From the IMG/VR virus record IMGVR_UViG_3300032954_000005, positions 13,249 to 77,248 of that record: a stretch of DNA of 64,000 nucleotides, one strand, 5' to 3'. Under the pieces are notes generated by a model. That model saw only the letters and a program-made list of their open reading frames with translations, was not told the DNA's origin and made no database searches. Of the stretch, positions 5,991 through 64,000 are shown piece by piece. The position numbers were made by a program, and so were the translations under genes. The stretch is from a virus. Numbering within the stretch: position 1 is the first letter of the stretch; each line of letters opens with the position of its first letter.

Positions 5991-6020
5991 TTTACAACGA
6001 GTCCGCCGCAGGTTTATTAT
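5991..6020 (+). promoter_or_regulatory. Putative sigma70 promoter for the replication operon
   Basis: TTTACA-18 nt-TATTAT. Confidence 0.5.
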
Positions 6021-6672: not shown

Positions 6673-6678
6673 GCGCCC

Positions 6679-8784: not shown

Positions 8785-9201
8785 TGGACGATATCAGGGT
8801 AAACGTGGAAACGCGCGTAAGCCCTCTACCGGGGTGGGTGAATAAGCGGGTGCGGGTCGAGGGGCACTGGTTGGGTGACTTTGAGGGAACGCTCGCCGAG
8901 GCGGGGCGCGCGCTCGCGATCGTTCGCAACGGCGAGGGCGTGGCGCGTGAGGTGTGCTACCTTCGCGGGGTCACGTTCACCTTTCTCGAAAGGAGCATGC
9001 TATGATCAACGCCCTGGGCTACGTCATCAAGTGTCAGAACCGGATCGAGCTCGGGAACGGCGCGACGACGACCTGCACCCTCGACGAGGGGCACGCCGGC
9101 GCGTGCGCGCCCCCGCGCCCGCCCTGCGACCTCTGCCTCAGGCTCGTCGAGTACTGGCGGGAGCACGACGCGCGTGAGAAGAAGAAAATGGAGGCGCAAC
9201 C

Positions 9202-9747
9202 GTGAGGCCGCTTTTCGTATTGTTGCTGCTGGTGGGCTGCGCGACGGCCCAGGACGACGCTCCGCCGATGACCCGCCTAACGCTCTTTCCCAACGTTTTA
9301 CGTTCCCAGGGCACGAAGGAGCTGTACGTCAACGACGTTGACTGCTCAAAGGATTGGGCGTACTGCGAGGAGCAGCTAAAGAGCCTCATGGCTGCGCCTA
9401 CGCCCGCGGCGTCGCAGTGTTCCGCCGATATGCCTCATTGCGTGATTGGCGACCCGGCACCGTGGCTCTATGTGCCGCAGCAGTGGGATACCCCGTTCAC
9501 TTGTACCTATGTGCTCCAAACCCATACGTTTCAAGCCGACCTGAAGGCTCCCGCGCCTGAGCCGTTCGACGTGCCGGCGGTTGGACATCCTGACCCATGT
9601 GGGCCTAACCCCGCTCACAGGAACACAACTGCGGACTTTTGTAATTCAAGAACGCCGCTGTGGACTTGTGCCGACCCGCTCCGCATCCTGTTAACGAGCG
9701 AAGATGGCAAGCATCACTGCTATGCCTTTTGGATGGTGAAACCATGA
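9202..9747 (+). CDS. Cys-rich exported protein or lipoprotein
   Basis: MRPLFVLLLLVGC lipobox-like N-terminus; many cysteines. Confidence 0.6.
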   Translation: MRPLFVLLLLVGCATAQDDAPPMTRLTLFPNVLRSQGTKELYVNDVDCSKDWAYCEEQLKSLMAAPTPAASQCSADMPHCVIGDPAPWLYVPQQWDTPFTCTYVLQTHTFQADLKAPAPEPFDVPAVGHPDPCGPNPAHRNTTADFCNSRTPLWTCADPLRILLTSEDGKHHCYAFWMVKP

Positions 9748-10253
9748 AAACCGCTGTCTATGTTTTGGGGTTGTTACTTGCCTACCTGTATGTCATCAAC
9801 GGGCAAGCCTACATTGCGTACCTCTGGCCTTCTCGCTCAGGAGAATGGGACGCAGGAGTTACTTACAAAGTAGTCATAACTTACGTCGAGGGCGGTGAGC
9901 ATACTTTTGCCGCTACCAAGATTCGTCCGCCTTTTCGATTCGTGCCGAGGATGAAACCATGAGCGCCCTATTATGGCTTCTCTTCGGAATAGGATCAGGC
10001 CCGATGCCGCCTCCACCACAGGGACAACACCAAATCTTACTGATAGACAAAACTTTATTTTTTACTGCAGATGGGACATTAGTATCTCCGCTGCACAATG
10101 CTGCTTGCATGATGCGGCATATTACGCTTCCATCCACGTATCCCCAAACTCCACCAGTATCTTACATAGTGCTGACATGCAAAACAGCCAAAGCCGTTTG
10201 CCAAACACTATTAGGGCAGCCTTGCAGGTGGACTTATTATGCGGAGGTTCGCA

Positions 10254-10406
10254 ATGAGCGATAGCCCCGCACTCATCTGCTTAACCTGTAAAGAGCACAA
10301 GCCACGATTGCTGTTATGCCAACAATGCAGCAAGGGCTTGTGCGAGAACTGCTATTACAGGCACAGCGCCTGTGAAGTTACTGGCGAAAGGAAGAGATGC
10401 AAATGA
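10254..10406 (+). CDS. 50-aa zinc-finger-like protein
   Basis: Hand translation MSDSPALICLTCKEHKPRLLLCQQCSKGLCENCYYRHSAC...; GGAGG RBS. Confidence 0.55.
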   Translation: MSDSPALICLTCKEHKPRLLLCQQCSKGLCENCYYRHSACEVTGERKRCK

Positions 10407-13385: not shown

Positions 13386-13700
13386 GTGACCCTCTATGCG
13401 ATCCTTGAGCTTCCCCCGGGGGCGACGCGCGAGGAGCTCCACGCGCGGTGGAAAAGCCTAAGCGGCCTTTGGCACCCCGACCGCGCCGACGGAGGGGACG
13501 TCGAGCGGTACAAGGAGCTCCAGGAGGCGTACGCCGTCCTAAAAAACGACGAGGCGCGCGCGGTGTACGATCGCCGCCTGCGGATGGACGGCGCGAACTG
13601 CCCGGCGTGCGCGGGTGCGGGCCGCGTCCAGCGGACGCTGTCCTTCACCCGCGTGGAGAACGTCGCTTGTGCTGCGTGCGCGGGCACCGGACGAAGATGA
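13386..13700 (+). CDS. Mini DnaJ-like protein (J domain plus two CxxCxGxG motifs)
   Basis: LYAILEL...WHPDR...ELQEAYAVL...RAVYD; CPACAGAG and CAACAGTG. Confidence 0.85.
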   Translation: MTLYAILELPPGATREELHARWKSLSGLWHPDRADGGDVERYKELQEAYAVLKNDEARAVYDRRLRMDGANCPACAGAGRVQRTLSFTRVENVACAACAGTGRR

Positions 13701-14128
13701 ACGCGCGCATTCTCGCGATCGCGCACTGCGTGGAGATGATGACGTGGGCGATCGAAATGCAGAACGAGCACCGCGCGCTCATCGCCGTCGTGGGAGAGCT
13801 CGACTGGTACTTTGAGCTTCATGACTTGCTGTACGAGGAGGTAAAAATTATGCCGCAGCAAACTGAAGACTTTATCTGCGCGTACTGCGCCGCTGCGTGC
13901 CGCGTTACGCGCCTGCTCTCGCTCGAGCTGTACCTCGAGCACCTTGACGTGGCGCACCCGGAAGAAGCGCAGCTGCCCACTTCCCTGCTGGTGCTCTTCG
14001 AGCGCGACGCCAGTTGGCACGAGCGCTGGCGCCGTCACCGCGAGCGCCACCACTACGTTCACCACACGTTCCCCGCGCGGTTAGCTATCGCGTGGGGGAA
14101 ACCGCAACCTTTAACCCGTACCTCCTAG
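13697..14128 (+). CDS. Hypothetical protein with an internal in-frame start and C2H2-like motif
   Basis: ATGA overlap with the J-domain gene; GAGGAGG before MPQQTEDFICAYC...HLDVAH. Confidence 0.45.
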   Translation: MNARILAIAHCVEMMTWAIEMQNEHRALIAVVGELDWYFELHDLLYEEVKIMPQQTEDFICAYCAAACRVTRLLSLELYLEHLDVAHPEEAQLPTSLLVLFERDASWHERWRRHRERHHYVHHTFPARLAIAWGKPQPLTRTS

Positions 14129-14138
14129 GAGAAGTAAA

Positions 14139-14468
14139 ATGTTTAACCTGAACCTTGGGTTCACCGTCGCGGCCACGGACAACGTGGTCGATAAGAACAA
14201 CAACCTCGTCCTGAACGCGACGCAGACCGGGCAGGCGTGGTCGGTCGCCGACCCGTCGATCGCGACCGTCGTCACCAACCCCGACGGAAGCGCGACCTTC
14301 ACCCCCGTGGCGGTGGGCTCCACCACCGCGTCGGTTACCGCGACCGTCACCGCCCCGGGCTTCGGGCCCACGCAGCTGTCGGGGTCTGACACGCTGAACG
14401 TCGTCGACACCCCCGCGGGCCTCCAGATCGTGTGGGGCGCGCAAACGCAGACGGCGAAGAAGGCCTAG
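14139..14468 (+). CDS. Ig-like (Big_2-like) domain protein
   Basis: AWSVADPSIATV...ATFTPVAVGSTTASVTAT; AGGAG RBS. Confidence 0.7.
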   Translation: MFNLNLGFTVAATDNVVDKNNNLVLNATQTGQAWSVADPSIATVVTNPDGSATFTPVAVGSTTASVTATVTAPGFGPTQLSGSDTLNVVDTPAGLQIVWGAQTQTAKKA

Positions 14469-14488
14469 CTTTTTCTACCTTTAACCTA

Positions 14489-14518
14489 GCGCGGAGCCTT
14501 CAAAAAGAGGTTCCGCGC
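14489..14518 (+). terminator. Hairpin, possible terminator
   Basis: GCGCGGAGCCT...AGGTTCCGCGC stem after the Ig-like gene; no immediate U-tract. Confidence 0.4.
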
Positions 14519-14535
14519 GACAAATTAAATTTTTA

Positions 14536-14564
14536 TTTACAAAGTTATTCGGCCGAATTATAAT
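14536..14564 (+). promoter_or_regulatory. Strong sigma70-type promoter
   Basis: TTTACA-17 nt-TATAAT with AT-rich upstream sequence. Confidence 0.85.
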
Positions 14565-14608
14565 TGACGTCGAAGCTTAAACTAAAGAAAACGAGGACAA
14601 ACCTACCT

Positions 14609-14938
14609 TTGAAGCTCAAGCCCCACGCCTTCGTGGCGGCTCTCTTCCGCGGGGGCTGCGACCGCTGCGGGCGCCCGCCTGACGACCTCGCGCACGCCGG
14701 CGAGCTGCGCGTGATCGCGCCCGTGTATGCCCTCGAGACCGTGCGCTACGGGACGGCGAAGGCGCCCGGGAACGTCGCGTGGGTAGAGGGCACGGAGCTT
14801 ACGCTGGTGGTGGGAATGAATGGCACCAAGTACGTGTACCTGGGGCGCGTGACGGAGAAGCAGATCCGCCGAAGCAATCACCTGCGCTACACCTACCACC
14901 CCACGCAGGCGATCGAGCTTGACGGAGACTTGATATGA
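14609..14938 (+). CDS. Hypothetical protein
   Basis: GAGGA RBS then TTG; first gene after the promoter. Confidence 0.5.
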   Translation: MKLKPHAFVAALFRGGCDRCGRPPDDLAHAGELRVIAPVYALETVRYGTAKAPGNVAWVEGTELTLVVGMNGTKYVYLGRVTEKQIRRSNHLRYTYHPTQAIELDGDLI

Positions 14939-15126
14939 TCATCGTGTTCATCGCGTTTATGGAAAAGATCAGCGGCCGCGAGATGCTTATCGAACTAGGA
15001 AGCATTGAAAGTGTATTTCAAGACGTGACCTGCGTTCTCATAAAGACGAAGTCCGGTCAAAGCTTTCAGGTCACGAACCCTTACGCTCAGATACTGGAGC
15101 GCCTAACCCGAAAAATACCAACGTAG
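14935..15126 (+). CDS. Small FlbD-like domain protein
   Basis: GREMLIELGSIESV...IKTKSGQSFQVTNPYAQIL resembles the FlbD/SwrD pattern. Confidence 0.4.
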   Translation: MIIVFIAFMEKISGREMLIELGSIESVFQDVTCVLIKTKSGQSFQVTNPYAQILERLTRKIPT

Positions 15127-15147
15127 TTCTTAAAAGGAGAACATCGT

Positions 15148-15642
15148 ATGAAGAAGCTACTATCGATAATCGCGGTTACGCTAGCCGTCGCCCTGACGCT
15201 CGCCACGTGGACGGCGTGCACGGGGCTCAACGCGAGCAACGCCAAGATCTGGCTCACGGCGGCGACCAACGCCTTCGTTGCCGGGATGTCACTGTACAAC
15301 CCGGGCTGGAGCGGGACGGCGATCGTCACCGACGTCAACAACGCCATCGCCGCGTGGGAGGTCGGCGCGGGCTGGCAGAACAACGTGATCGTGGAGCTGA
15401 ACCAGGCGCAGAAGGACGTTCTCACCATCCAGGGCTGCAACAGCAAGTGCCAGGGGCTCACCACCATCTTCCTGGGGTTCATCGAGACGGGGATTCAGCT
15501 GGCGCAGCAGTCCTCGAAGTCACCCGTGCCCGCCTCGGCGTCGCGCGTCGCTCTCCCGGCGGGCACGCACGCCTACGCGAGCTACGATGACTACAAGCGG
15601 GAGTGGAACGCTCAGGCGCCGCCCGTGGCGAGGCTGAAGTAA
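15148..15642 (+). CDS. Putative lipoprotein
   Basis: MKKLLSIIAVTLAVALTLATWTAC signal peptide ending in a lipobox-like Cys; AAGGAG RBS. Confidence 0.7.
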   Translation: MKKLLSIIAVTLAVALTLATWTACTGLNASNAKIWLTAATNAFVAGMSLYNPGWSGTAIVTDVNNAIAAWEVGAGWQNNVIVELNQAQKDVLTIQGCNSKCQGLTTIFLGFIETGIQLAQQSSKSPVPASASRVALPAGTHAYASYDDYKREWNAQAPPVARLK

Positions 15643-15645
15643 GCC

Positions 15646-16632
15646 ATGAAACCAGGCGCGATCGTTCAGCTCAGGTCGGGAGGGCCGCCGATGACGGTCC
15701 TCCGCGTTTATAGCAACAACGTCGTTCAATGCCGGTGGTTTAGCGGCAACGACATGCGCGTAGACATGCTTCCCCTGGCGACGTTAAAGGAGATGGTGAC
15801 ATCCTCGCCGCTCCTCGCTGCCCCGTACGGCGCGGCCTCGGGCGCCCGCCGGTACGGCGCGCGCAAGGACGCGGCGGACGTGCGCGACCTCAGGCTCAGC
15901 CTGAGCGCGCTGTCGCCGCTGCCTACGCCGCCGTCGCATGACGAGTCGCGGTGGCTGGGCCCGGTGCGCGATCAGGGGGCGGAGTCGTCGTGCGTCGGCC
16001 ACGCCTGGGCCGCGCACGCCAGTTGGCTGTTTAACAAGTTTGGCGATAAGGGGTCGCTCGACTTCAGCCCTCAGTTTCTTTATTACCTCGCGCGCCAGCT
16101 CGAGGGGACGCTTCCCGCTGACGGCGGGTGCCAGGTGCGGTCGGGCGCGAAGGCGCTTAATCAGTACGGGGCGGCGCTGGAGACGGACGACCCCTACGAG
16201 GCGTCGACCCTGAACCAGGCGCCGACGATCGCGGCCGTCAAGGACGCGCTCAATTTCAAGGGCGGCGCGTACCATCGCCTCACGAGCGTTCTCGACATGA
16301 AGGCGTGCCTCGCCTCGGGCTACGCGTTCGTAGACGGGATCGAGGTCTACGCCAGCTTCGAGTCGGCGGCGGTCGCGCGATCGGGCGAGGTGCCGCTGCC
16401 TAACGCCGCGGCGGGTGAGTTCTACTTAGGCGGCCACTGCGTGCTGACGTTCGGGTACGACGACAACCACGTGAACCTGGACTCGACACGCGGCGCGTTC
16501 CACAAGCGCAACTCGTGGGGCGCGGCGTGGGGAGAGGGCGGGGACTTCTGGCTTCCGTACGCTTACATGCAGAAGTACCTGATGGACGCCTGGGTCCTGC
16601 ACCTCGGGCCGGCGTGGGTAAAAAAGCCGTGA
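15646..16632 (+). CDS. Papain-like C1 cysteine peptidase with N-terminal YodC/DUF2158-like domain
   Basis: VQLRSGGPPMTV...CRWF (DUF2158-like); DQGAESSC, GGHCV and RNSWG catalytic motifs. Confidence 0.88.
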   Translation: MKPGAIVQLRSGGPPMTVLRVYSNNVVQCRWFSGNDMRVDMLPLATLKEMVTSSPLLAAPYGAASGARRYGARKDAADVRDLRLSLSALSPLPTPPSHDESRWLGPVRDQGAESSCVGHAWAAHASWLFNKFGDKGSLDFSPQFLYYLARQLEGTLPADGGCQVRSGAKALNQYGAALETDDPYEASTLNQAPTIAAVKDALNFKGGAYHRLTSVLDMKACLASGYAFVDGIEVYASFESAAVARSGEVPLPNAAAGEFYLGGHCVLTFGYDDNHVNLDSTRGAFHKRNSWGAAWGEGGDFWLPYAYMQKYLMDAWVLHLGPAWVKKP

Positions 16633-37520: not shown

Positions 37521-37550
37521 GGCCCTGGCCAACGCGGCCAGGGCCTTTTT
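37521..37550 (+). terminator. Rho-independent terminator
   Basis: GGCCCTGGCC-aacgc-GGCCAGGGCC-TTTTT at the convergence of the two arms. Confidence 0.85.
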
Positions 37551-37702: not shown

Positions 37703-38038
37703 CTACTGCTGTACCAGGTTGGTCGGCGTCAGCGGAATGTTCTTCACGTCCACCTGGTTCGACGGCAGCGACTCAAGCTGCGTGGCGTTGTCCACCGCTG
37801 TCACCTGATAGCAATATCGCCCCACAGCGAGACCCACGTCCACGTAAGTCTTGGGAACGATCCCCTCTTTTACGGCCGCGAACTGCGGGTTCTGCGCGCA
37901 CGCCTGTGGCGCACGGTAAAGCGTGTAGGTCACCGAGTTCGGCGGGTTCTGCGTATCCTGCCACGCCAAGGTGACCGACGCCGCAAACACGTTGCCGCCG
38001 TAGAGCAAGGAAGCGAACAGCATAAGTTTCACAAGCAT
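37703..38038 (-). CDS. Exported single FN3-like domain protein
   Basis: GGAGG RBS; MLVKLMLFASLLYGGNVFA|ASVTLAW...YTLYR...YCYQVTAVD...ESLPSN. Confidence 0.75.
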   Translation of the reverse strand: MLVKLMLFASLLYGGNVFAASVTLAWQDTQNPPNSVTYTLYRAPQACAQNPQFAAVKEGIVPKTYVDVGLAVGRYCYQVTAVDNATQLESLPSNQVDVKNIPLTPTNLVQQ

Positions 38039-38072
38039 TTCATCGAACCTCCAAGCGGTGCGTTTAGTCCTG

Positions 38073-39659
38073 TCATGGCTGAGTGCATCCTGTCCCATAA
38101 ATATAGTCGAGACAGACGGCTCCGTAATACCAGTCGGCACCAGTACTCCAAGTGTCGTTGCCCCCATTGCCAAGGTGTATTTGATCTGCGGGGCCACCGC
38201 CAGAAATGGTACAGCTAGAAGTAATGTGCAAAAGCAATGGTGGACTAGCGCCGCATCCTGTATAAATATAGATTTCGTGCTGCCCCGCTTGGTGGTATTT
38301 ATTAACAACAAAATACTTAGAGTTTGCCGCCCATAAATTTGTGCCAGTGTACGTAGGAGTACCACCGCACTTGGGTTCCATTTGCCACGGATGTGCTGCG
38401 CCTGCGCCCCAAGCCAGATTGACATAATCAGCGTTCCCTGTGTTATCACCGCCGAAAATAACAAACGAATCTAACCCGCAACTACCACCCGGACAGGCAC
38501 TGGATACTCCGGGTGATGCCGTAGTTTGGATACACGTACTCGCTGTCGTGTCTCCATTTGTAGTATCAAAGTAAAGAGCTAACCCGCCTGCTGTACCACT
38601 AGCATGATCTAGGCCAAGAGTATTGCTTCCAGCGCCGGTTCCAGAATAAAACGGGCAACTACGGGTGGTCGCCAGCGGCTGATATGCAGAAGTATTACAA
38701 GACAATCCAGTGCCAGAACCTGAGAAAACTATTCCCGGAGGATGAGCCAGCTTATCTGCATTGGGCTGGGCCTGATCTCCATAAGTTGATGCTTGCACTG
38801 TTCCTGTAGTAAACGAGGAGCCACACCCGTTCCAGTCAATAATGGCTGAGGCTCCGCAAGTTCCAGCATGGTTCTGCCCATAAGCTGCCATGCCGATGCC
38901 ATAGCTTACCGATGAAGCATCAGTGTATGGGCCAGTCGTAGCTGTTTTTGTGGTCTGAACCCAGTGCTCCGAGTATAGGTTATTGGTGTTGGCGTCTAAA
39001 GTAAAATTTGTTCCTGCTGTGTTTGTGCCGCTCTGAATCTGCCCCGCCGAAATCACAATTTCATTGTTCGCAAATGGAGTATAGCTATTGCCGTTAGCAG
39101 GGTTAGTGGATGTATTGGTTCTCGATTGCATGACGCTGGAATCCAGCGCATAGGTTGATGGCGTTCCCCTGAGTTCTTCGCAATAGATTCCACCATTGGT
39201 TTCGGCAGGTGAGTAGGTCAGCGTAATGGTGGTATCCGAGGCGGCAACATTTTCTTTGTAGTAGGAGCCATAAACATAAGAGTGATCTTGACGGCGCAAG
39301 CGGCTGATTTCTGGCAAATACACGCCGCTATTTACGTTGTCGGCAACCGAAGTAAAGGTTGCGCTGTTGCTGTATTTAATGTCGCAACGGATAACGCTTC
39401 CGGCATTTGGAGTACCAATATCAACCACAACGGTTGTAGAGCTTGACGAGGCATTATCTGTGAAATTGTTAACCCCAACGGTGATCGCGGGATAGCCGGA
39501 TATCGGCAGGGTAGGAGCAGGAAATGAAATTCCAAGCTGCGGGTCTATGCCAACCCTTACCCATTCGTCCGAAATAGGGTCATAGTAAGTCCACGGCTCG
39601 GCACTCGCCGCGGCACAAAGAAGTATCAGTATGATAACAAATAGTACAGCCCGTCTCAT
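38073..39659 (-). CDS. Exported Cys-rich beta-sandwich/lectin-like fibre-locus protein, lower GC
   Basis: MRRAVLFVIILILLCAAASA|EP signal; Thr/Ser/Gly-rich; 14 Cys in the predicted mature part. Confidence 0.7.
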   Translation of the reverse strand: MRRAVLFVIILILLCAAASAEPWTYYDPISDEWVRVGIDPQLGISFPAPTLPISGYPAITVGVNNFTDNASSSSTTVVVDIGTPNAGSVIRCDIKYSNSATFTSVADNVNSGVYLPEISRLRRQDHSYVYGSYYKENVAASDTTITLTYSPAETNGGIYCEELRGTPSTYALDSSVMQSRTNTSTNPANGNSYTPFANNEIVISAGQIQSGTNTAGTNFTLDANTNNLYSEHWVQTTKTATTGPYTDASSVSYGIGMAAYGQNHAGTCGASAIIDWNGCGSSFTTGTVQASTYGDQAQPNADKLAHPPGIVFSGSGTGLSCNTSAYQPLATTRSCPFYSGTGAGSNTLGLDHASGTAGGLALYFDTTNGDTTASTCIQTTASPGVSSACPGGSCGLDSFVIFGGDNTGNADYVNLAWGAGAAHPWQMEPKCGGTPTYTGTNLWAANSKYFVVNKYHQAGQHEIYIYTGCGASPPLLLHITSSCTISGGGPADQIHLGNGGNDTWSTGADWYYGAVCLDYIYGTGCTQP

Positions 39660-41809
39660 CGGAGCACCGCCCAATTCACCACCATAGATGAAGGAGTAAT
39701 AGGCCCACTAGTACTGTTGCACACCTTGAAATTCACGTGGTCAGCAGTTGGATAGGCATAGAGATTGAGTAGCGCTCCGGTTGCGCTCACTCCCCAGCCT
39801 GTGTAGCCTGTTGGGTCGGCGTTCGGCGTGTACTCAATCCTGTCTGTCGTTAGGACTCCCGTAGCCGTTCCACCATCAATGGCACTCGTACAGGTATTGT
39901 TGGTCACCGCGCCCGGGTTGATCGTGGCCGTTCCGCTGGCTATACGTACAGGAGCCGCAACGCATGACCACGTGTGAGTCGAAGTGTTGTAGAGGTCGGC
40001 CCCGCTGGTGCAGATCGGCATGGATACCGCTGTCGGAGCCGCACTGCCTCCAGTTGCGTTTATTACTACCGTGTCAGCAGCTTGGGCGGCTATGTCGGTC
40101 AAGGCAACGGTTGCGCAAGTCGGACGCCCGGAACTGTCAATCGAGCGAGTAAATTGGTTGGTGCAGGTTCCGCCTGGAGTGTTGCCGTTGACCTTTACGA
40201 CTGAAACCGCGTTGCTACCGCTGGTCGTCGCGTCACCGCTTAACTCTGCCCCAGTGAAGGGCGAAGCCCCGCGCAGGATGCCAGTTGGAGCACTCGACGG
40301 AATCTGCGCCTCTTGTGCCGTCGTAGTGATCGTTGAAGCTGCGTCCTGCACCGCAACGTGACGATTCGTAGTGAGTGCGGAGACCGTAAAATCGAAAGAC
40401 TGATTCGCCGCATTTCCAAGGAACAAGTCGCCAAAAGGCAGGGGGGCCGTGCCAAGATTCTTGGCTGCGGCCACCGCCGGGGTTATACTTTCCGTTGCTG
40501 TGATAGTTGTGCCGTTATCGTTGAGGTGGGCTGCACCGAATCCGCCAGAGCCGTCATTGTCCTGCAGGTCGCCAGAACTGCCGCCAGGAGAGCCGCCACC
40601 ACCCCCTGCGTCGCAGCCCGTGCCCCCGCTACCACCGTATAGGTATCCCTTGGAGCCGCATGAAAATAATGCAGTAACGTCAGTGGCCGTAGCGGCAGAC
40701 AGTACTCCCGTCGTGGTGGTGTTTTTAAGTAGGCCCGTGGCCAGCGCGCCTAGGAATTGCGCACCCGATAAGCCGGCGTCTGACGTTCCCTGAACGATGA
40801 AGGCGTTGGCGAAGGGGACGTTCGCAGAGCCGTCCACGCTGTTCCCCGCCAGGCTCCTCGCCGTCGCCCACTTCGCTGCGCTACCCGTCGTATCTTGGTT
40901 CAGCGTGGGAAAGTCGCCGGCGACGGCGATCGAAAGAACGCCTGTCGTCGTTGTGTTCTTCAGAATACCGGTTGAGAGCGCGCCAAGAAACTGAGCGCCG
41001 GATAAGCCAGCATCAACTGTACCCTGAACAACGAACTTATTAGAGAACGCGACGTTCGCAGAGCCGTCCACGCTGTTCCCCGCCAGGCTCCTCGCCGTCG
41101 CCCACTTTGCCGCGGACGTTGCGTTGATCGCGCCCGTTCCGGTCGCGTCTAAGGTTGAGCCGTTGCCAACGTGGAGCGTCTGACCCGCGTTCGTTCCCGA
41201 CGTCACTGTGTTCCACGCGGCCGAACCCGCCGCTCCCGGCCCAACTAAGAGCGGTACGCCACTGTTACAAGAATACAGGTCCCCTGTGGTTGAGTCCGTA
41301 ATCAGCTGGCTACCAAAGCACGACGGCGGTACGCCGGGATATGACAGCGAGCCGCCGGAGCCCTGCGCTAGGGTCTCAGTGGTGGTGACCGTCACCGTGG
41401 GAGCGGTGCCCCCGGAGAACGTAGGCACCAGCTTGAAGTAGTCGTAGACGTTAGAAAACGTCACGGCCTGGTTCCCCGTCGAGGTCGACGTGTAGGTCGC
41501 AGCCACGCTGTCGCACGCGCCGCCCGCGAGGCAGCCCTGGATTGGGATCGACATCGCGGCGGGGGAGCCCGTGATGCTGATCCCGAAGTTTACCACGAGC
41601 GCTCGGATGTTGTTGTTTACGGTGATCGCCGTCCCGCTGACGGTCACCTTCTGCGCTGGGTTAACGCAGCTCGACGGCGTCGCCACGTACGACCCGCCTG
41701 GCGACCCGACTACGTTCAGCACGCAGTCCGTCGGCGCCTGCGCGTAACCATAAGCGCCGAGCCCGCTTAGCAGACCCAACAGCAGTAGGCCCAGCGTTCT
41801 AATTTTCAT
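39656..41809 (-). CDS. Tail-fibre-like protein with signal peptide
   Basis: MKIRTLGLLLLGLLSGLGAYGYA|Q; two SAAKWATARSLAGNSVDGSANV fibre-type repeats; 14 Cys. Confidence 0.78.
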   Translation of the reverse strand: MKIRTLGLLLLGLLSGLGAYGYAQAPTDCVLNVVGSPGGSYVATPSSCVNPAQKVTVSGTAITVNNNIRALVVNFGISITGSPAAMSIPIQGCLAGGACDSVAATYTSTSTGNQAVTFSNVYDYFKLVPTFSGGTAPTVTVTTTETLAQGSGGSLSYPGVPPSCFGSQLITDSTTGDLYSCNSGVPLLVGPGAAGSAAWNTVTSGTNAGQTLHVGNGSTLDATGTGAINATSAAKWATARSLAGNSVDGSANVAFSNKFVVQGTVDAGLSGAQFLGALSTGILKNTTTTGVLSIAVAGDFPTLNQDTTGSAAKWATARSLAGNSVDGSANVPFANAFIVQGTSDAGLSGAQFLGALATGLLKNTTTTGVLSAATATDVTALFSCGSKGYLYGGSGGTGCDAGGGGGSPGGSSGDLQDNDGSGGFGAAHLNDNGTTITATESITPAVAAAKNLGTAPLPFGDLFLGNAANQSFDFTVSALTTNRHVAVQDAASTITTTAQEAQIPSSAPTGILRGASPFTGAELSGDATTSGSNAVSVVKVNGNTPGGTCTNQFTRSIDSSGRPTCATVALTDIAAQAADTVVINATGGSAAPTAVSMPICTSGADLYNTSTHTWSCVAAPVRIASGTATINPGAVTNNTCTSAIDGGTATGVLTTDRIEYTPNADPTGYTGWGVSATGALLNLYAYPTADHVNFKVCNSTSGPITPSSMVVNWAVLR

Positions 41810-42432
41810 CGCGTTTCCTTTCCTGCCGGGACTCCCGGCAACTTAAATTTCGTCGCTTCGCCAACAATTGAGCCAAAGGCGTGCGCTGCCCCCGCCTGGT
41901 AGTACACCGTGATCGAGACGTAGTCGAGGCCCGCCGTCTCCGAGGCGTCGCTGTTCTGGTTGTGCACCGCGATCGTTAGGCCGAACGAGCTGTCGTCGAC
42001 CGTCGCCCCCATCGGCGAGCTGACGCCCCAGACGTCGGTCGGCGAGCCGTAGGTGGCGGTCGACGGCCCGGGCAGCCAAAGTCCCAGCGCCGCCTTGTTG
42101 TTTCCGATGGCGACGCCCCCGGACTGAAGCTGAACAGTGTAGTCGCTCAGGTCCCCGAAGCCCGTAAGGTCCGAGCGGTAAACCGTCACCACAATTCCCT
42201 GGATTAGAGCCCCCGCGGGGACGGTAAACCCGAAGCCCTTCGTGACGTTGTTCGCCGAGTTCGAGCTGGGCAGGATCGACTTCGATGCATACTGGCCGTC
42301 CCGCACGAAGATGTACGTCGGGTTCGCCCACCCGCCCGCGGTCACCGTCGGCCCATTCGGGCCCTGGGAGAGTTGCCCCAGAGCCGCTGCGGCGCTAATC
42401 GTTAGAAAAAGTAACGCGCGTATCAGCTTCAT
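41806..42432 (-). CDS. Exported beta-sandwich fibre-locus protein
   Basis: MKLIRALLFLTISAAAALG|Q; FGFTVPAGALIQGIVV...YGSPTDVWG...DYVSITVYY. Confidence 0.7.
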   Translation of the reverse strand: MKLIRALLFLTISAAAALGQLSQGPNGPTVTAGGWANPTYIFVRDGQYASKSILPSSNSANNVTKGFGFTVPAGALIQGIVVTVYRSDLTGFGDLSDYTVQLQSGGVAIGNNKAALGLWLPGPSTATYGSPTDVWGVSSPMGATVDDSSFGLTIAVHNQNSDASETAGLDYVSITVYYQAGAAHAFGSIVGEATKFKLPGVPAGKETR

Positions 42433-43118
42433 GGAACCGAGCACCTCAGGGCCATCGTGGCGTGCTGTAACGTGGTCGCGGAGAGGACATAAAACGAGAT
42501 CAGCGTGTTCTGAGCGACGCTCGTCGACCAGCCCTCCGCCGCGATATTAAAGTCCTGCGACTTGTAGGCCGATGAGATCACGGGATAGTGCCCGTTTACG
42601 ATGCTCCCCGACGTGGGAAACAACGAGTAGCTGGTCGCCTGTACGTCCAGCGCGATCGAACCCGAAAGGTCGATCGAAAGAAGCGTCCAGCCCTGAAGGG
42701 TACAGGCGAAGGGCACCTCGAGCGTTCCCTTCCAGCCCGTAGTGATTGGTGACCCCCCGCCGTCGAGCACCATCGTTATGTCCTTGTACGTCGTGATGGG
42801 AACGATCTGCGCGCTCCCGTTCGTGCCCAGCTGAACGGAGCTCACGCCCGCGCCCGAGGAAATCAGCACGGGCGAGGTCACGGACGTGGCGGCGGAGACC
42901 GTCCCGGCGCTCAACGCGGTGATCGTCGCGGCGGGGGTCGTAACCGACGTGTTCGCGCTGAGCGTCGTCACCGTCGCCGCCGCGGGGGTGGTGCCCCCGA
43001 TCACGGTGCTGTCGATCAGCGAGTTAAAGAGGTGCACGGCGTTCATGTTTGAGTAGCTGAGCGCTGCCACGCCGATCGCGCAAAGTAGCGCCAGGGCTAA
43101 CCAGTAATATCTTTTCAT
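42429..43118 (-). CDS. Exported fibre-like protein
   Basis: MKRYYWLALALLCAIGVAALS signal; IDSTVIGGTTPAAATVTTL fibre-like repeat; C-terminal beta domain. Confidence 0.7.
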   Translation of the reverse strand: MKRYYWLALALLCAIGVAALSYSNMNAVHLFNSLIDSTVIGGTTPAAATVTTLSANTSVTTPAATITALSAGTVSAATSVTSPVLISSGAGVSSVQLGTNGSAQIVPITTYKDITMVLDGGGSPITTGWKGTLEVPFACTLQGWTLLSIDLSGSIALDVQATSYSLFPTSGSIVNGHYPVISSAYKSQDFNIAAEGWSTSVAQNTLISFYVLSATTLQHATMALRCSVP

Positions 43119-43120
43119 TA

Positions 43121-43696
43121 TTAAGCTCCCATCATTGGGCCCACCGCGCGGAGGTTGTTGTCTGGGCAAACCCTGAACCTTTGGATTCCGTACTGGTTCG
43201 CCGTGGGCCAAACTGAGCCCCCGCCCAGCACGTTCGCGGGCCACGCGACCGTGCGCCCGCCCACGCCGTCCTGCTGAAATTGAAACTCGATCGGGAGTCC
43301 AGGGGTCGCGTGGATCACCGTGGGTGCGGTGACGTTCCCCGTCAGCAGCATGTAGAAGTTCCAGCCCAGCGAGCAGTCGAACACCGGGTTGGCGCTGTAG
43401 GGGACGACGATGATCCCCGTGATCAACGGAAGCGTCGAGTCCAGCAGCACCTGAAGGGTCGCCGCCAGGGTCGCGGTGCTGGCGTCAGAGGTAGAGTAGC
43501 CGTTGATCGCGAGCATCTGCCCCAGCGCCGCGCACATCACCGACCACTGGCGAAACATTTTGTTCATGCGCGCGGAGGGCATAATGTCGTCCACGGCGAT
43601 CCCGTTTAGGCGCTGGGTGTCAGTAAGGTACGTCGAGTCGGACTCCTGGTTCGCCTCAGTCGGGTTCCACTCCAAAAAGTTTGTGCTTGACGGCAT
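43121..43696 (-). CDS. Short tail-fibre anchor/adaptor without signal peptide
   Basis: SARMNKMFRQWSVMCAALGQ resembles the baseplate-attachment domain of myophage fibres; only 191 aa; directly after the wedge gene. Confidence 0.7.
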   Translation of the reverse strand: MPSSTNFLEWNPTEANQESDSTYLTDTQRLNGIAVDDIMPSARMNKMFRQWSVMCAALGQMLAINGYSTSDASTATLAATLQVLLDSTLPLITGIIVVPYSANPVFDCSLGWNFYMLLTGNVTAPTVIHATPGLPIEFQFQQDGVGGRTVAWPANVLGGGSVWPTANQYGIQRFRVCPDNNLRAVGPMMGA

Positions 43697-43708: not shown

Positions 43709-44347
43709 TTAGGCCGCGTGCCCCAGGTCGGCGCCCGCGATAAACGAGTTGCTTAGGTCCGCGCCAAAGATCGGCGTCTCACTGAAGATATAGTTGATCA
43801 GCACCCCCTCGGGGCGCGGCACGATCAGGTCGTGAGTGATTATCTCCTCGATGATCGACGTGAACGAGCCGGTGAGGATGACGTTGAACGTCATGTCCTG
43901 GTTGTCCTGCACCACCAGCCGCCCGTTAGGAAATAGGCCCAGCCAGAGTTGCTGTAGGCCGTCGATCGTGCCGTTCCACGTGTTCCGCCCGATCTGCGCC
44001 TGGAGCAGGATCCGGTAGGTCGCGTCGTCGAGGATCGGGGACCCCGACGTCGGCTGAAACGGAAGCGTTCGGCTTACCCCCACGATCTCGCCGAGAACGT
44101 CGAGCTGCGCCCCCACCGCAGTCGCCAGGTCAAACGCGTTGAAAAAGCTGTACAGGCAGTTGGTGATGTCGTCCAAAAACTGAAGCGCCGCCGCGGCCCA
44201 CGCTAAGAGCTTCTGGGACTGCTGGTACTGCGACGTAAAACGCGCCAGGTAGTACGAGACAGGCTCGGAAAAGGTCGGTTCCCCCCCGCCCCCGTACGGC
44301 CCCACGCCGTAGCCCCCCGCACCGTAGCCGATGAAGGTTGGTGGCAT
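43709..44347 (-). CDS. Baseplate wedge protein (DUF2612-like)
   Basis: FDLATAVGAQLDVLGEIVG...LDDATYR...WNGT...QDNQDMT...PRPEGV. Confidence 0.88.
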   Translation of the reverse strand: MPPTFIGYGAGGYGVGPYGGGGEPTFSEPVSYYLARFTSQYQQSQKLLAWAAAALQFLDDITNCLYSFFNAFDLATAVGAQLDVLGEIVGVSRTLPFQPTSGSPILDDATYRILLQAQIGRNTWNGTIDGLQQLWLGLFPNGRLVVQDNQDMTFNVILTGSFTSIIEEIITHDLIVPRPEGVLINYIFSETPIFGADLSNSFIAGADLGHAA

Positions 44348-45771
44348 TAGACCAGATTCACCGTAACGTTTCCCGTCACGCCCTGTGTTACCTCGTTAAA
44401 GTTCACCCCGACGTCCAACGTCTGCGCCGCACCGCTCGCCGTGATGTTTACGGTGGCGCCCGTTCCCACTCCCGCCCCGGTTTCAAGAAGCGCCACACCC
44501 GTCGCCGTCACGTAGTCCGTACCCGTTTGGATCAGTGAGATGCCCGTGATGTTTCCGCTTCCCCCCACCGAGGTCACCTTGACCTGGGCCGCGTTGCTGG
44601 AGTTATTTTGGTTAACGATCAGGACGTCGTTGACCGCGTAGCCCGTGCCCGCCGCGTTGATCGTCGCCGTCTGCAGGAGCCCGGAGTGTGCCAACGTCAG
44701 CGAACGAATGGAGAAGGTAGGTGCCTCAAGGCTCCCAGCCTGCGCCATCACGTAGGCGCTCAGCGCGCTCAGCGTCAGCGGCTCCCCGATCTGTAGCGAG
44801 TTAAGGTAGCCGACGATCGCCGCCTGAACCGCCGCCTGGGTGGCGCTGTTGTTGCCGCTGATGATGTGGACTTGCGCCACGACCACGATCGCAACATACG
44901 TCGGGCGGTCGAAGCGGATGGTCGTCACGAAGCCCGTGTATGGGTCGGTGATCGCCACCGAGGAGGCGCCGTTGGTGTAGCACCCGGGGGTCTTATTGTT
45001 GTAGATCGTCTGCGCGACGTTCTGGTCGGTGTCCCCTTCGACCACCGCGGTTATGGAGTGGGGCGGATTCCCGTAGATGTCGGTGGCGCCCGTCGGGTTC
45101 TCCGCCACCGTCGCGCGCGTCACGTTAGGCAGCGCCTTAAGCCCGGCCAACGTCCCGTCCACGCGCGTCTGCGAGGGAAGCGCCACGCTCAGGTAAAACC
45201 GCGCCCGGAGCTGCGCGTCCGTCTCGATGGGTTGCCCAATCGCCGCCGCGCCCGCGTTGTTGACCGTGCTCCAGCCCGCGGTGGGATTGTTGATGATACT
45301 GATGGTGCTCGGCGCAGCGGAGACCGCGCCCAACGTCTCGCACGTCGCGGTCACGTCGATCGTGCCGCTCATGGGGATGGTCACCGTTGAGGGAAGGTCC
45401 CAGAGAAACCCGTTCACGTCGCGCGCCACGCCGTTCGCAATCACGGTATTCGCCGTCCCGGTGATGGTCAAGGTCACGGAGCTCGCGGTCGCCTGCTTGC
45501 GCGCGATCCCAGACAGCTTCACGATCCCGTCGAGCCCCGCTCCCACCGCGGTCGCCGGGCTGCGGTTGAGGTAGACCAGCTGAAGCCCCTGAAGCGTGTC
45601 ATTGATCTTCAGGCAGACGGTGGAGATCCACTGGTACTCTGCCGCGTCGTTCCCCACGTACGCACCCGGTCCGTAGATGCTCTGAAACGAGTTCAAAAGA
45701 GAGTTGAGAATGTCGAGGTACTGCGAGATCGTGAGTCCCGCGGCGCCGATCGTCGGCGGCGTGTACGCCAT
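44347..45771 (-). CDS. Baseplate J-like protein
   Basis: SPATAVGAGLD...ETDAQLRAR...PPHSI..VVEG. Confidence 0.92.
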   Translation of the reverse strand: MAYTPPTIGAAGLTISQYLDILNSLLNSFQSIYGPGAYVGNDAAEYQWISTVCLKINDTLQGLQLVYLNRSPATAVGAGLDGIVKLSGIARKQATASSVTLTITGTANTVIANGVARDVNGFLWDLPSTVTIPMSGTIDVTATCETLGAVSAAPSTISIINNPTAGWSTVNNAGAAAIGQPIETDAQLRARFYLSVALPSQTRVDGTLAGLKALPNVTRATVAENPTGATDIYGNPPHSITAVVEGDTDQNVAQTIYNNKTPGCYTNGASSVAITDPYTGFVTTIRFDRPTYVAIVVVAQVHIISGNNSATQAAVQAAIVGYLNSLQIGEPLTLSALSAYVMAQAGSLEAPTFSIRSLTLAHSGLLQTATINAAGTGYAVNDVLIVNQNNSSNAAQVKVTSVGGSGNITGISLIQTGTDYVTATGVALLETGAGVGTGATVNITASGAAQTLDVGVNFNEVTQGVTGNVTVNLV

Positions 45772-61156: not shown

Positions 61157-61606
61157 TTACTGCTGCACGTAGTCGACGAAGCCGTCCAGGCTCGTCGCGC
61201 CCGAGGCCGTGGTGACACAGAGCTCGCCCCCCGACGCCCCCGCGAACTGAACGTGGGTACCCGCCGTGGTCACCAGCGTGGTGGTGGGGAACAATGGTGA
61301 CCCGGTGATCGACGTGGCGCCGGTGTCACACGCCGTCGAGACCTTCGTTCCGGTCTTGAACGTCGTCGCGCCCGTGCCCACGGCGACCAGCGAGTAAGCG
61401 CACACGTACACGGTCTTCCCAGCGGACGCCGCCACCAGCTCCGTGGTCGTCGCCGTCGTGATGTGCACCGGAACGGAGAGCTTCAGCACCGCTGGATTCT
61501 GGCAGGGATCCGCCCATTGTGGATATTGGAAGGTTTGCGTCTGCGCCGCTCCCAGCGTGGCGAGCGCCACGACCAGGGCCGCGACTAACAAGATTGTACG
61601 TTTCAT
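61157..61606 (-). CDS. Exported beta-sandwich protein in the head module
   Basis: MKRTILLVAALVVALATLGAA|Q signal; 4 Cys; AGGAG RBS. Confidence 0.75.
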   Translation of the reverse strand: MKRTILLVAALVVALATLGAAQTQTFQYPQWADPCQNPAVLKLSVPVHITTATTTELVAASAGKTVYVCAYSLVAVGTGATTFKTGTKVSTACDTGATSITGSPLFPTTTLVTTAGTHVQFAGASGGELCVTTASGATSLDGFVDYVQQ

Positions 61607-62813: not shown

Positions 62814-64000
62814 TCCTCTTCCTCCTTTTCTTCCTTCGCAGGCTCCAGTTCCACGGCCAAGGTCTCGCCCTCGGCGAGAGGCACGATGAGCTTCTCACCC
62901 TCCTCGGCGTCCTTCGTTGCCTGTCCTACGCTGCGACGGAACTCCTCGAGCGGGACGCGCGTGAGACCGTCGAAGTGGTCGCGATCGTCGTAGTTCGCCC
63001 GGAACGCTGCCAAGGCCTCCGCCTCGTCATTGAACCCGAGCATACACTTGTCCTCGTCATACACGCCCGTCTCCGGGTTCTTCGTGTGGATCACGTAGAC
63101 ATAGTCGGCAGACTCGTGCGGCCCGAGGAAGCAGTCCAGCTCGTCGCCGTCCGCCCAGCGCGTCCTGGGAACGTAGCCGTAGTCGTTCCTCAGGCGCACG
63201 CTGAACCCCGGGCCACTGCGCGTCTCTCCCGCCTTCGTCTCGACCTCAACGCGCAGCCCGTTGAAGGTGCGCGGCGTGGTAGGCGACTGCGTGCCGTCTA
63301 CGTAGGAGTCCTTACTTTCACGCCGCTTTAATTCTTCCAATTCTTTTTCTTTACGTAGGGTTTCTTCTTTTTTCGTCTGATGGCGTTGAATAGAACGTTG
63401 CGCTTCTATTAAATCACCATTATAAAGAACGCTAGTAAGTGGCCCTGGTTGTTTTCCCTTTTCAGTGACAGCATAACCCCTTGGTGATTCTGTTATTTGG
63501 AAGTTTTTTGTCTGAAAAAAGGGCTTATTTGTACTGCTACCAGAAGTAAACTCCCCGCCCTCATTGCGCGGGTGCTCCTCTTCCTTAAACTCCGCGTCAC
63601 GGGTCGCGCGGCGCCACAGCGCCTGGAACAAGGGACGCAGGCCGCGCGCCACAGCGCGTCGATCGTCCTGGGTTTTGCGCGCCCTGCGATCCGCGTGGCT
63701 TGCCAACGCCGCGCCCAGCGCCCGCAGGCCCGCGTCCCTTGTCTCGGGCGCCGGGGCGGTCGACGTCCACAGCCGTCTGACCGTCGCGCGCACCGCGTCC
63801 GTCACCGAGCGCTGCTCCTCCGCTTCCGCTTCCACGGGCTCCGCCTCGGGCTCGATGTTTTCCTCCGCGCCCTCGCCGGGCGGGAGCTGAAGCGGCTCCT
63901 CGCTCCCGGCGCCCAGCAGGCCCTCCATCCCGGGCTGCGCGATGTCGTTCGTCGCCTCGGCGATGTCCTCGTCGGTGATGTTCGTGCCGAAGCCCGTCAC
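62810..64000 (-). CDS. C-terminal part of portal (DUF1073-like) fused to an inorganic-pyrophosphatase-like domain; 5' end outside the window
   Basis: TGFGTNITDEDI resembles portal C-termini; F.E.EHPR...G.F motif; DYGYVPRT..ADGDELDCFLGP...DEDKCMLGF InPase-like domain. Confidence 0.75.
   Translation of the reverse strand: MTGFGTNITDEDIAEATNDIAQPGMEGLLGAGSEEPLQLPPGEGAEENIEPEAEPVEAEAEEQRSVTDAVRATVRRLWTSTAPAPETRDAGLRALGAALASHADRRARKTQDDRRAVARGLRPLFQALWRRATRDAEFKEEEHPRNEGGEFTSGSSTNKPFFQTKNFQITESPRGYAVTEKGKQPGPLTSVLYNGDLIEAQRSIQRHQTKKEETLRKEKELEELKRRESKDSYVDGTQSPTTPRTFNGLRVEVETKAGETRSGPGFSVRLRNDYGYVPRTRWADGDELDCFLGPHESADYVYVIHTKNPETGVYDEDKCMLGFNDEAEALAAFRANYDDRDHFDGLTRVPLEEFRRSVGQATKDAEEGEKLIVPLAEGETLAVELEPAKEEKEEEE

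Follow-up and report, generated by a model that had tools for sequence, protein, structure and literature searches.

Bacteriophage proteins that cross the inner membrane of the host are known from a few different contexts. The coat proteins pIII and pVIII of filamentous phages are virion proteins made with Sec or YidC-dependent leaders, which are incorporated after crossing the inner membrane into a virion that is extruded through the envelope. On the other hand, exported accessory proteins such as T5 Llp, phi80/N15 Cor, and lambda Lom and Bor carry signal peptides, are encoded in or beside the tail-fibre region and act at the host envelope, in the case of Llp as an established blocker of the receptor, but they are small lipoproteins or outer-membrane proteins expressed early or from the prophage. 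In Porphyromonas gingivalis prophages, leader-bearing genes of unknown function follow the Bacteroidetes Q-rule (PMC5837995, PMC10653852), that is, their predicted signal-peptidase I cleavage exposes a Gln, which was read as an adaptation to the host Sec pathway, and the genes themselves as modifiers of the host surface (Matrishin et al. 2023, PMC10367356). In the cultured Cellulophaga phage phi18:3 (NC_021794.1, Pachyviridae), a podovirus of a marine Bacteroidota host, three consecutive large late proteins open with Sec-type leaders and are recorded as found in virions. No paper was found, however, describing such export signals on the fibres of tailed phages, whose host-recognition proteins are normally encoded next to the tail tip and whose particle is built in the cytoplasm.

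Here we describe a complete 77-kb contractile-tailed phage from a wetland that carries secretion signals and paired cysteines on five consecutive fibre- and lectin-type genes behind its baseplate. The analysed window is a stretch of 64,000 nucleotides of this genome. The genes are all on the minus strand and follow the baseplate wedge genes that head the same gene string, baseplate J (44347-45771; PF04865, E 1.9e-17) and DUF2612 (43709-44347; PF11041, E 4.9e-31), with a match to phrog_6 baseplate wedge subunit (E 4.1e-51), whereas a wedge subunit, a spike, a hub and a Dit-like protein lie further upstream. After them come a leaderless 191-aa fibre-like protein (43121-43696), P2 (42429-43118, 229 aa), P3 (41806-42432, 208 aa), P4 (39656-41809, 717 aa), P5 (38073-39659, 528 aa) and P6 (37703-38038, 111 aa). 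The P2/P3, P3/P4 and P4/P5 junctions are ATGA overlaps, P2 starts 2 nt after the stop of the 191-aa gene, and P6 starts 34 nt after P5. A G+C-rich hairpin at 37521-37545, with a 10-bp stem of 9 G-C pairs followed by a T run on the plus strand, lies between the convergent late and early operons and is the likely end of the late transcript. No comparable terminator lies between the baseplate genes and P6.

The preliminary description of this locus, made from the sequence alone, was correct in its observation, including the gene order, the N-termini, the repeated motif and the even numbers of mature cysteines. Each of the five proteins shows a basic n-region, an uncharged hydrophobic core and a small-x-small site, and all of them pass a heuristic for Sec leaders, whereas the 191-aa protein does not. 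This heuristic is permissive (20 of 105 ORFs pass its loosest form), and the prediction with SignalP that had been proposed as a check was not made. The run of five is nevertheless more than chance, since only about 12 of roughly 105 genes in the genome have a strong leader, and nine of these are large fibre-like proteins grouped in two clusters. The mature cysteine counts of P2 to P6 are 2, 0, 14, 14 and 2, and those of P4 fall in local pairs (29/48, 93/99, 164/181, 384/399, 549/565, 600/616 and 640/697).

The 191-aa protein had been regarded as a short anchor holding the normal fibre position, but it is not merely a stub. It is 86% identical in L020, a close relative with 83% identical baseplate proteins, and a protein language-model search of the ESM Atlas placed it nearest to widespread viral proteins of about 180-200 aa with Mtd_N and phiTE_241_C type domains (score 0.96, 213 shared features, TM 0.59, clusters of about 198 aa in which 38-54% of members carry PF26209 Phage_phiTE_241_C), so that it may be a complete short fibre or an adaptor. 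However, it has no Pfam hit at E<=0.1 and our AF2 model of it was unusable (pLDDT 36), so its membership of this short fibre family is left undecided by these data. It is the only leaderless fibre-like gene in the complete genome.

The first leader-bearing protein, P2, whose ATG at 43118 is preceded by GGGAG, has an N-terminal leader or signal-anchor, a threonine/alanine-rich shaft-like repeat region and a C-terminal domain that matches phrog_35197 (E 2.5e-12), phrog_10330 'virion structural protein' (E 4.4e-10) and the leaderless protein YP_007672917 of the cyanophage S-CAM1, which lies next to tail-fibre genes. The cysteine-free P3 is probably a beta-sandwich, and its only Pfam hit is a weak DUF5620 match (E 0.023). 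Its leader ends in ..ALG before a mature N-terminus QLSQGPNGP, which is conserved in L020 while the leader differs. In the case of P5, which has a G+C content of 49.7% against about 62% for its neighbours, the Atlas gives only weak leads to viral Laminin_G_3 clusters (score 0.80), and a ConA/LamG-like lectin domain is possible. Finally, P6, whose ATG at 38038 is preceded by GGAGG, consists of a leader and one Ig/FN3-like domain, matching phrog_1696 (E 1.5e-4) in an Ig-like decoration region and, weakly, the Kre9_KNH Ig-like domain.

The 717-aa P4 is built like a receptor-binding fibre and has 2822 relatives in the representative library searched. An AF2 model shows a helix at residues 2-19, in support of the leader, a beta-sandwich at 29-144 (pLDDT of only 55-66), a low-confidence shaft and a confident C-terminal beta-sandwich. 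A 21-residue motif occurs at residues 233 and 311, inside a duplicated shaft unit of about 78 aa (40634-41146, minus strand, residues 222-392), which is nearly invariant across leader-bearing and leaderless relatives, is covered by no Pfam family and matches an annotated 'tail fiber protein' of MW202697.1. The C-terminal domain (39659-39955, minus strand, residues 619-717, pLDDT of about 90) is predicted to be a lectin-like beta-sandwich of the tailspike type: VIA-align gave KP32gp38 with Z 7.3 (rmsd 2.5 A, 81 aligned), Discoidin I with Z 6.4, phi297 gp61 with Z 6.2, LKA1 gp49 with Z 5.7 and the R2 pyocin fibre with Z 5.0, and a Foldseek search of BFVD gave 20 hits at E<=1e-3 in Caudovirales spike and fibre proteins.

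Leader-bearing genes are not restricted to this position. A second cluster of four giant leader-bearing, cysteine-paired proteins of 1037, 536, 1365 and 1049 aa, hereafter cluster B, lies between the terminase and the head genes at genome coordinates 2665-15416 (locus L019), and only the N-terminal 722 aa of its first protein, that of 1037 aa, fall in the window (1-2168, minus strand). All four leaders end in A-x-A followed by Q, the total Cys counts are 17, 15, 28 and 21, mostly in short loops, and the 1365-aa protein has weak tail-fibre and K1-lyase C-terminal hits. Moreover, a 149-aa leader-bearing protein with 4 Cys, which matches no family, is encoded inside the head-gene block (61157-61606, minus strand), with a leader ending in ..GAA before QTQ.

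Conservation of the leaders in homologous phages had been put forward in advance as a test of export, and homologues starting downstream of the hydrophobic segments as its refutation, and the survey came out in favour of the leaders. The relative L020 has core proteins 82-86% identical, but P2 (57.5%), P3 and the N-terminal part of P4 are only 57-63% identical, and yet each keeps a leader, with the hydrophobic N-terminus of P2 retained and the mature N-termini conserved. Leaders are also kept in L002 and 9 other viral loci. Among 149 representatives of the P4 family, 56 leader-bearing members have a median of 14.3 Cys per 1000 aa and even:odd counts of 42:11, whereas 82 leaderless members have 2.4 per 1000 and 34:33 (Mann-Whitney p 1.8e-10), and within this phage leader-bearing proteins have 20 Cys per 1000 aa against 6.2 for leaderless structural proteins. 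A small-x-small site followed by Gln comes after the hydrophobic core in 46 of the 56 leader-bearing relatives (5.4 expected from control windows) and in 7 of 10 leader-bearing proteins of this phage. Furthermore, in viral contigs the same-strand neighbours of leader-bearing fibre homologues carry leaders in 15 of 39 cases, against 0 of 18 for leaderless homologues (Fisher p 0.0013). Altogether, export and oxidative folding in the periplasm are strongly supported, indirectly but by several independent signatures, although translocation and cleavage were not assayed.

The preliminary interpretation, by which exported and oxidised fibres dock on the 191-aa anchor at or after lysis, is thus only partly supported, since nothing that we could compute shows the docking. 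Our leading reading, to which we give a probability of about 0.45, is that the locus is the distal end of the late baseplate operon and encodes a modular, partly dispensable cassette of two fibres, a small beta-sandwich protein, a lectin-like protein and an Ig-like protein, which would be made with cleavable Sec signal peptides, cross the inner membrane unfolded, and fold and form disulfides in the periplasm. The export part of this pathway rests on the signatures above, whereas what follows is inferred: when the holin opens the inner membrane at lysis, the pre-folded, oxidised proteins would meet the cytoplasm-built particles, and at least P2 and P4 would attach as accessory or side fibres, probably through the 191-aa protein or the wedge. 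This would give the virion disulfide-stabilised host-recognition gear that the reducing cytoplasm cannot make. A virion destination is favoured by the translational coupling of the cassette to the baseplate gene string, by the lack of any other leaderless fibre-like gene, by two further viral loci (L018 and L005) where leader-bearing fibre homologues directly follow the tail-tip genes, where receptor-binding proteins are normally encoded, and by the record of phi18:3. However, presence on the particle was not examined, and no attachment domain or interface to the virion was found: none of the five proteins has a known attachment domain, and the mature N-termini share no common adaptor domain with each other or with leaderless fibres, which, given the poorly modelled N-terminal sandwich of P4, leaves the question of a docking domain undecided. 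The argument from the fibre position is also weaker than first thought, as leader-bearing fibre-like genes sit away from the tail module both in cluster B and in the viral loci L002 and L015, resembling mobile late-operon cargo, and L020 has P4 cut to 142 aa (leader plus N-domain) and lacks P5 and P6, so the distal part of the cassette is not essential.

A serious rival, also raised in the preliminary description and held here only somewhat more tentatively, is that the proteins are exported but never join the virion, acting as free periplasmic or lysis-released lectins, glycan-binding fibres or depolymerase-like factors, which could mask or destroy receptors on the dying cell and its debris, loosen capsule or matrix around the burst site, or block superinfection. 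The cassette would then be late-expressed accessory cargo derived from receptor-binding proteins. All the evidence for export applies equally here, together with the absence of the distal cassette in L020, the foreign G+C of P5, the similar genes between the terminase and head genes here and next to the terminase in L002 and L015, the reading of the P. gingivalis phage genes as host-surface modifiers, and the wide occurrence in bacterial MAG contigs of leader-bearing proteins with the same repeat, some of them 1-4 thousand residues long, like cell-surface proteins. On the other hand, about 23% of the genome would be spent on non-virion proteins, expression is coupled to the baseplate genes instead of being early or autonomous, P4 and P2 keep full fibre architecture, several phages have no other receptor-binding candidate at the tail tip, and leader-bearing proteins of phi18:3 are recorded as found in virions. 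In addition, a Sec leader alone reaches only the periplasm, and no outer-membrane export signal was found: none of the five proteins, the four cluster-B proteins or 52 leader-bearing relatives has a Pfam hit to the type IX C-terminal sorting domain (Por_Secre_tail, PF18962).

It is unlikely, but possible for P2 above all, that some of the hydrophobic N-termini are uncleaved signal-anchors holding the proteins on the periplasmic face of the inner membrane, for example as assembly platforms, lysis-associated factors or injection blockers. The hydrophobic stretch of P2 is long (about 17 residues), partly conserved in L020, including a Cys, and lacks a clean A-x-A site followed by Q, and a 126-aa transmembrane protein with a glutamine-rich segment after the membrane span sits inside cluster B. 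However, P3, P4, P5 and P6 have short hydrophobic cores followed by canonical small-x-small sites, in P3 and P4 the leader diverges while the residues just after the site are conserved, as expected for cleavage, and 46 of the 56 leader-bearing family members have a site with Gln at +1. The last possibility, that the leaders are artefacts of start-codon choice or chance hydrophobic N-termini of ordinary cytoplasmic fibres, is close to refuted, because the starts are fixed by ATGA overlaps or Shine-Dalgarno-like motifs, no in-frame downstream start would keep the conserved mature N-termini, leaders are kept in the relative and in distant phages, and the differences in cysteine density, parity and Gln at +1 between leader-bearing and leaderless relatives cannot arise from mis-called starts.

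With regard to the described systems, phi18:3 is only an analogue, whose gp085, gp086 and gp087 (547, 785 and 559 aa), beside the lysis and terminase genes, have leaders ending in a small residue followed by Gln or Val and are called virion, structural and tail proteins 'based on experimental MS/MS proteomics analysis'. Nevertheless, they show no sequence similarity to the proteins described here and are cysteine-poor (0, 1 and 3 Cys), the record does not remark on the leaders, and co-purification in a proteome does not prove attachment. The leaderless tail fibres with the same shaft repeat, such as those of MW202697.1, the ORFs in the loci L003, L006 and L008, and the 82 of 149 representatives, share a repeat up to 85% identical and the same modular build, but have about six times fewer cysteines, no bias towards even Cys counts and no leader-bearing neighbours. 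The C-terminal domain of P4 is predicted to take the same beta-sandwich fold, at the same C-terminal position, as the lectin-like domains of KP32gp38 (9qrm), phi297 gp61 (4ru5), LKA1 gp49 (4ru4), AP22 gp54 (4y9v), Pam1 (7eea) and the R2 pyocin fibre (6cl6), and of H-type lectins such as Helix pomatia agglutinin and Discoidin I, although the Z values (5.0-7.3) are middling, the sequence identity is 4-22%, and those proteins are cytoplasmic and leaderless.

As with the P. gingivalis prophage genes, which were not interpreted as fibres, a Gln follows the predicted site in P3 and P4, whereas P5 and P6 have Glu and Ala and P2 is unclear (3 of the 5 proteins were counted in the comparison with those genes). 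A host in Bacteroidota would fit the MAG hits, which are mostly from this phylum, but the 62% G+C of the genome and the Shine-Dalgarno-like motifs preceding 36 of 62 genes argue against a typical one, and the Bacteroidota O-glycosylation sequon is not enriched, observations that leave the host undecided. Unlike Llp, Cor, Lom and Bor, the five proteins have no lipobox, range from 111 to 717 aa, include fibre-like and cysteine-paired members, and are tied by ATGA coupling to the late baseplate string, with no internal promoter or terminator signal above chance. Finally, pIII and pVIII are likewise made with leaders, but the phage described here is a tailed phage with terminase, portal, sheath and baseplate, whose particle is packaged in the cytoplasm.

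The virus record comprises 77,248 bp, of which the window covers bases 13249-77248, and is rated complete, and its first 380 bases or so (1-380) recur at 76684-77063 (63436-63815 of the window) with 3 mismatches, after which the two ends diverge, indicating a closed or terminally redundant genome of about 76.7 kb, in which a minor-head/InPase ORF of about 866 aa spans the junction. On the minus strand, a late gene string runs from the head genes through sheath, tube and tape measure, and continues with a Dit-like protein, hub, spike, wedge (phrog_120), baseplate J and DUF2612. Six further genes follow, which encode a leaderless 191-aa protein (43121-43696), P2 (42429-43118, 229 aa), P3 (41806-42432, 208 aa), P4 (39656-41809, 717 aa), P5 (38073-39659, 528 aa) and P6 (37703-38038, 111 aa). 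The P2/P3, P3/P4 and P4/P5 pairs overlap as ATGA, whereas P2 starts 2 nt after the preceding stop and P6 follows a 34-nt gap with GGAGG. The only convincing terminator hairpin lies at 37521-37545, between this string and the convergent early genes.

The observation made in the preliminary description, a run of five consecutive genes with secretion leaders and even numbers of mature cysteines, holds. Each of the five proteins starts with one to three basic residues, followed by an uncharged hydrophobic core and a small-x-small site, which is not the case of the 191-aa protein. Mature cysteine counts are 2, 0, 14, 14 and 2, and those of P4 form seven local pairs. The 21-residue fibre-type motif described in P4 occurs at residues 233 and 311, inside a duplicated unit of about 78 aa. 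Leaders were scored without SignalP, and signatures that do not depend on a predictor were therefore sought.

Conservation of the signal peptides in homologous phages, which had been proposed in advance as a check, was found in a close relative (IMGVR_UViG_3300031251_000054, loci L020 and L021). Its wedge, J, DUF2612 and 191-aa proteins show 82-86% identity, whereas P2, P3 and the N-domain of P4 are only 57-63% identical, but all three still start with a basic-hydrophobic leader whose sequence has drifted, and conservation resumes right after the predicted site (for example, QLSQGPNGP in P3). An exhaustive profile-free search with P4 found 2822 relatives, which share the central repeat, and among 149 representatives, 56 carry a strong leader and 82 start with Met without one. 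The leader-bearing set shows a median of 14.3 Cys per 1000 residues and even:odd counts of 42:11, as compared to 2.4 per 1000 and 34:33 for the leaderless set (p 1.8e-10), which is the expected mark of an oxidising compartment and cannot be produced by mis-called starts. Column-by-column conservation of the P4 cysteines across 104 relatives was uninformative, because the multi-domain alignment is poor outside the repeat. Moreover, 46 of the 56 have a small-x-small|Gln site just after the hydrophobic core, against 5.4 expected from control windows, as do 7 of the 10 leader-bearing proteins of this phage, and Gln at +1 is the published Q-rule of signal peptidase I substrates (PMC5837995, PMC10653852). 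Genomic contexts were read in IMG/VR and metagenome-assembled genome (MAG) loci, and not for the representatives themselves. In 15 IMG/VR loci with a P4-repeat protein, the nearest same-strand neighbours of leader-bearing homologues also carry leaders in 15 of 39 cases, against 0 of 18 for leaderless homologues (Fisher p 0.0013) and a background of 20 of 213, and whole modules are therefore either cytoplasmic or exported. Inside this phage, leader-bearing proteins have 20 Cys per 1000 residues, as compared to 6.2 for leaderless structural proteins.

No Pfam family covers P4 or its repeat. The repeat unit of about 78 aa (40634-41146, P4 residues 222-392), with a consensus near PTLNQNTTGSAAKWTTAR.LAGNSVDGSANVAF, is 70-85% identical across phages of 36-66% G+C and occurs in 2822 proteins, which makes it a candidate for a new domain family. 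It matches an annotated tail fiber protein and many leaderless fibres. An AF2 model of P4 built on 104 relatives gives a helix for residues 2-19 and a moderate beta-sandwich for residues 29-144, whereas the shaft is unresolved, as expected for a trimeric fibre folded as a monomer, and residues 620-717 form a confident beta-sandwich. This last predicted domain aligns with the C-terminal lectin-like domains of phage tailspikes and fibres, such as KP32gp38 (Z 7.3), phi297 gp61 (Z 6.2), LKA1 gp49 (Z 5.7), AP22 gp54, Pam1 and the R2 pyocin fibre, as well as with H-type lectins, and twenty predicted Caudovirales spike or fibre proteins match at E<=1e-3; the Z values are middling, but the list is coherent. 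A short Cys-loop module (GGTCTNQF.RSI......TCA.V) at P4 residues 546-570 recurs twice in the leader-bearing fibre of another IMG/VR locus, L018 (8321-10720), and appears to be a disulfide-stapled shaft element specific to exported fibres. P2 shows shaft-like Thr/Ala repeats and a C-terminal domain that matches phrog_10330 'virion structural protein' and a leaderless S-CAM1 protein encoded beside tail-fibre genes. P5 gives only weak leads to ConA/LamG-type lectins, and its 49.7% G+C in a genome of about 62%, together with its absence from the close relative, makes it look like a recent horizontal acquisition at the end of the late operon. P6 is a leader plus one Ig/FN3-like domain. PDB sequence searches with P4, P5 and the 191-aa protein found nothing, and viral-contig scans with P3, P5 and the P2 alignment found nothing beyond the one close relative. 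As for the 191-aa protein, an AF2 model from a two-row alignment (pLDDT 36) was unusable, but protein-language-model features and the Atlas structure place it closest to a large family of viral proteins of about 180-200 aa with Mtd_N and phiTE_241_C domains, and it may therefore be a complete short fibre and not the bare anchor previously suggested.

The same genome contains a second cluster between the large terminase and the head genes (window 1-2168, minus strand, continuing outside the window; genome 2665-15416, locus L019), with four giant leader-bearing, cysteine-paired proteins of 1037, 536, 1365 and 1049 aa, all with A-x-A|Q sites. Their total Cys counts are 17, 15, 28 and 21, mostly in short loops. 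The 1365-aa protein has weak tail-fibre and K1-lyase C-terminal hits, and a 126-aa transmembrane protein with a glutamine-rich segment after the membrane span lies between the second and third. A 149-aa protein with a Sec-type leader (..GAA|QTQ) and 4 Cys sits inside the head-gene block (61157-61606, minus strand); it matches no family and could be an exported decoration protein or cargo. Together, these ten leader-bearing proteins take about 23% of the genome. A prophage-flank or host-gene origin was rejected, since the record is a complete virus genome that closes on itself and both clusters lie between phage genes. On the plus strand, a 181-aa predicted lipoprotein (leader ending ..LLVGC) that matches no family lies among the early/middle genes (9202-9747), and at 15148-16632 a lipoprotein gene is directly followed by a DUF2158 plus papain-family (Peptidase_C1) protein. 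The peptidase is 35% identical (E 4e-50) to one in the unrelated 46% G+C phage of locus L002 (7302-8698), where it also follows a lipoprotein gene and sits just upstream of the leader-bearing fibre cluster, and it may be part of lysis or of fibre processing.

Leader-bearing P4 relatives also occur in 10 of 17 IMG/VR loci spanning 36-61% G+C and in 27 of 44 scorable MAG loci, mostly Bacteroidota, where some of these proteins are several thousand residues long. The MAG hits and the Gln at +1 in 7 of 10 leaders, which is the Bacteroidetes Q-rule, point towards a Bacteroidota host. On the other hand, the 62% G+C, the Shine-Dalgarno-like motifs preceding 36 of 62 genes (10 of 62 in controls) and the lack of enrichment of the Bacteroidota O-glycosylation sequon D[ST][AILVMT] (29 observed against 23.6 expected) do not. 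The host is unknown, and the Q-rule may reach beyond Bacteroidota, or the host may be an atypical member. Among the sequencing runs, no RNA dataset was listed and reads were not mapped; the two DNA datasets with this sequence are wetland metagenomes.

The interpretation offered in the preliminary description, in which the fibres are exported, oxidised in the periplasm and docked on the short protein at or after lysis, is supported only in part. Export and periplasmic oxidation are well supported by the signatures described (a probability near 0.9), whereas the destination of the proteins is a matter of inference, and attachment to the particle at lysis is tentatively favoured (about 0.45). P4 and P2 show full fibre architecture, the cassette is translationally coupled to the baseplate genes, and no other long fibre exists in a complete genome. 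In L018, the gene order is tape measure, tail protein, a 193-aa leaderless fibre-like protein and then leader-bearing fibre homologues, and in L005, another IMG/VR locus, leader-bearing homologues likewise follow the tail-tip genes. However, the relative L020 keeps only the leader and N-domain of P4, as an intact 142-aa ORF (10812-11240) with the four conserved Cys that stops where the shaft begins, and two reverse-strand genes replace the rest of P4, P5 and P6. Leader-bearing fibre genes also sit far from tail genes, and no docking domain was found. BLAST of mature N-termini of leader-bearing relatives against N-termini of leaderless ones found only the shared repeat, with no evidence that a leader was grafted onto a canonical attachment domain, and all-against-all BLAST of the leader-bearing proteins of this phage found no shared adaptor domain. 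Modelling of a complex with the 191-aa protein had also been named beforehand as a test, but with P2 residues 21-229 it returned no answer (score 0.00), which is not evidence either way. The main rival, only somewhat less favoured, is that the proteins are exported but free, acting on receptors, capsule or matrix. Uncleaved signal-anchors, mainly for P2, are unlikely, and start-codon artefacts can be practically dismissed.

In its boldest form, which is possible but put at somewhat less than even odds, this model implies a tailed phage that builds its particle in two compartments. Capsid, tail, baseplate and a short leaderless fibre would be built in the cytoplasm, whereas a set of Sec-exported, disulfide-bonded fibres and lectins would fold in the periplasm and snap onto the particle only when the holin breaches the inner membrane. 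This would be a widespread but undescribed assembly route, which may also extend to the four giant proteins of the second cluster and the head-module protein. If host-recognition proteins are routinely exported and oxidised, many real receptor-binding proteins are being mis-filed as host or moron genes, recombinant expression of such fibres and depolymerases will need periplasmic or oxidising conditions, lysis timing becomes part of virion maturation, and host Sec and Dsb functions become phage dependency factors. In the case that they do not join the virion, a phage that spends about a quarter of its genome on secreted fibre-like proteins points to an unstudied extracellular side of infection.

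Textbook assembly of tailed phages takes place entirely in the reducing cytoplasm, and annotation pipelines treat a signal peptide as evidence against a virion role. Among the papers that could be searched, none describes exported tail fibres of tailed phages: signal peptides are taken as a mark of non-phage proteins (PMC6199706), and where leader-bearing phage genes are noted, they are read as host-surface modifiers (PMC10367356). The present case adds a contractile-tailed phage with a J/DUF2612 baseplate, family-wide statistics on cysteine density, parity and Gln at +1, and a natural deletion variant. Attachment is also favoured by the cultured Cellulophaga phage phi18:3, an analogue without sequence similarity to these proteins, whose gp085-087 have clear Sec-type leaders and are labelled in its GenBank record as virion proteins from MS/MS, while its other virion proteins have none.
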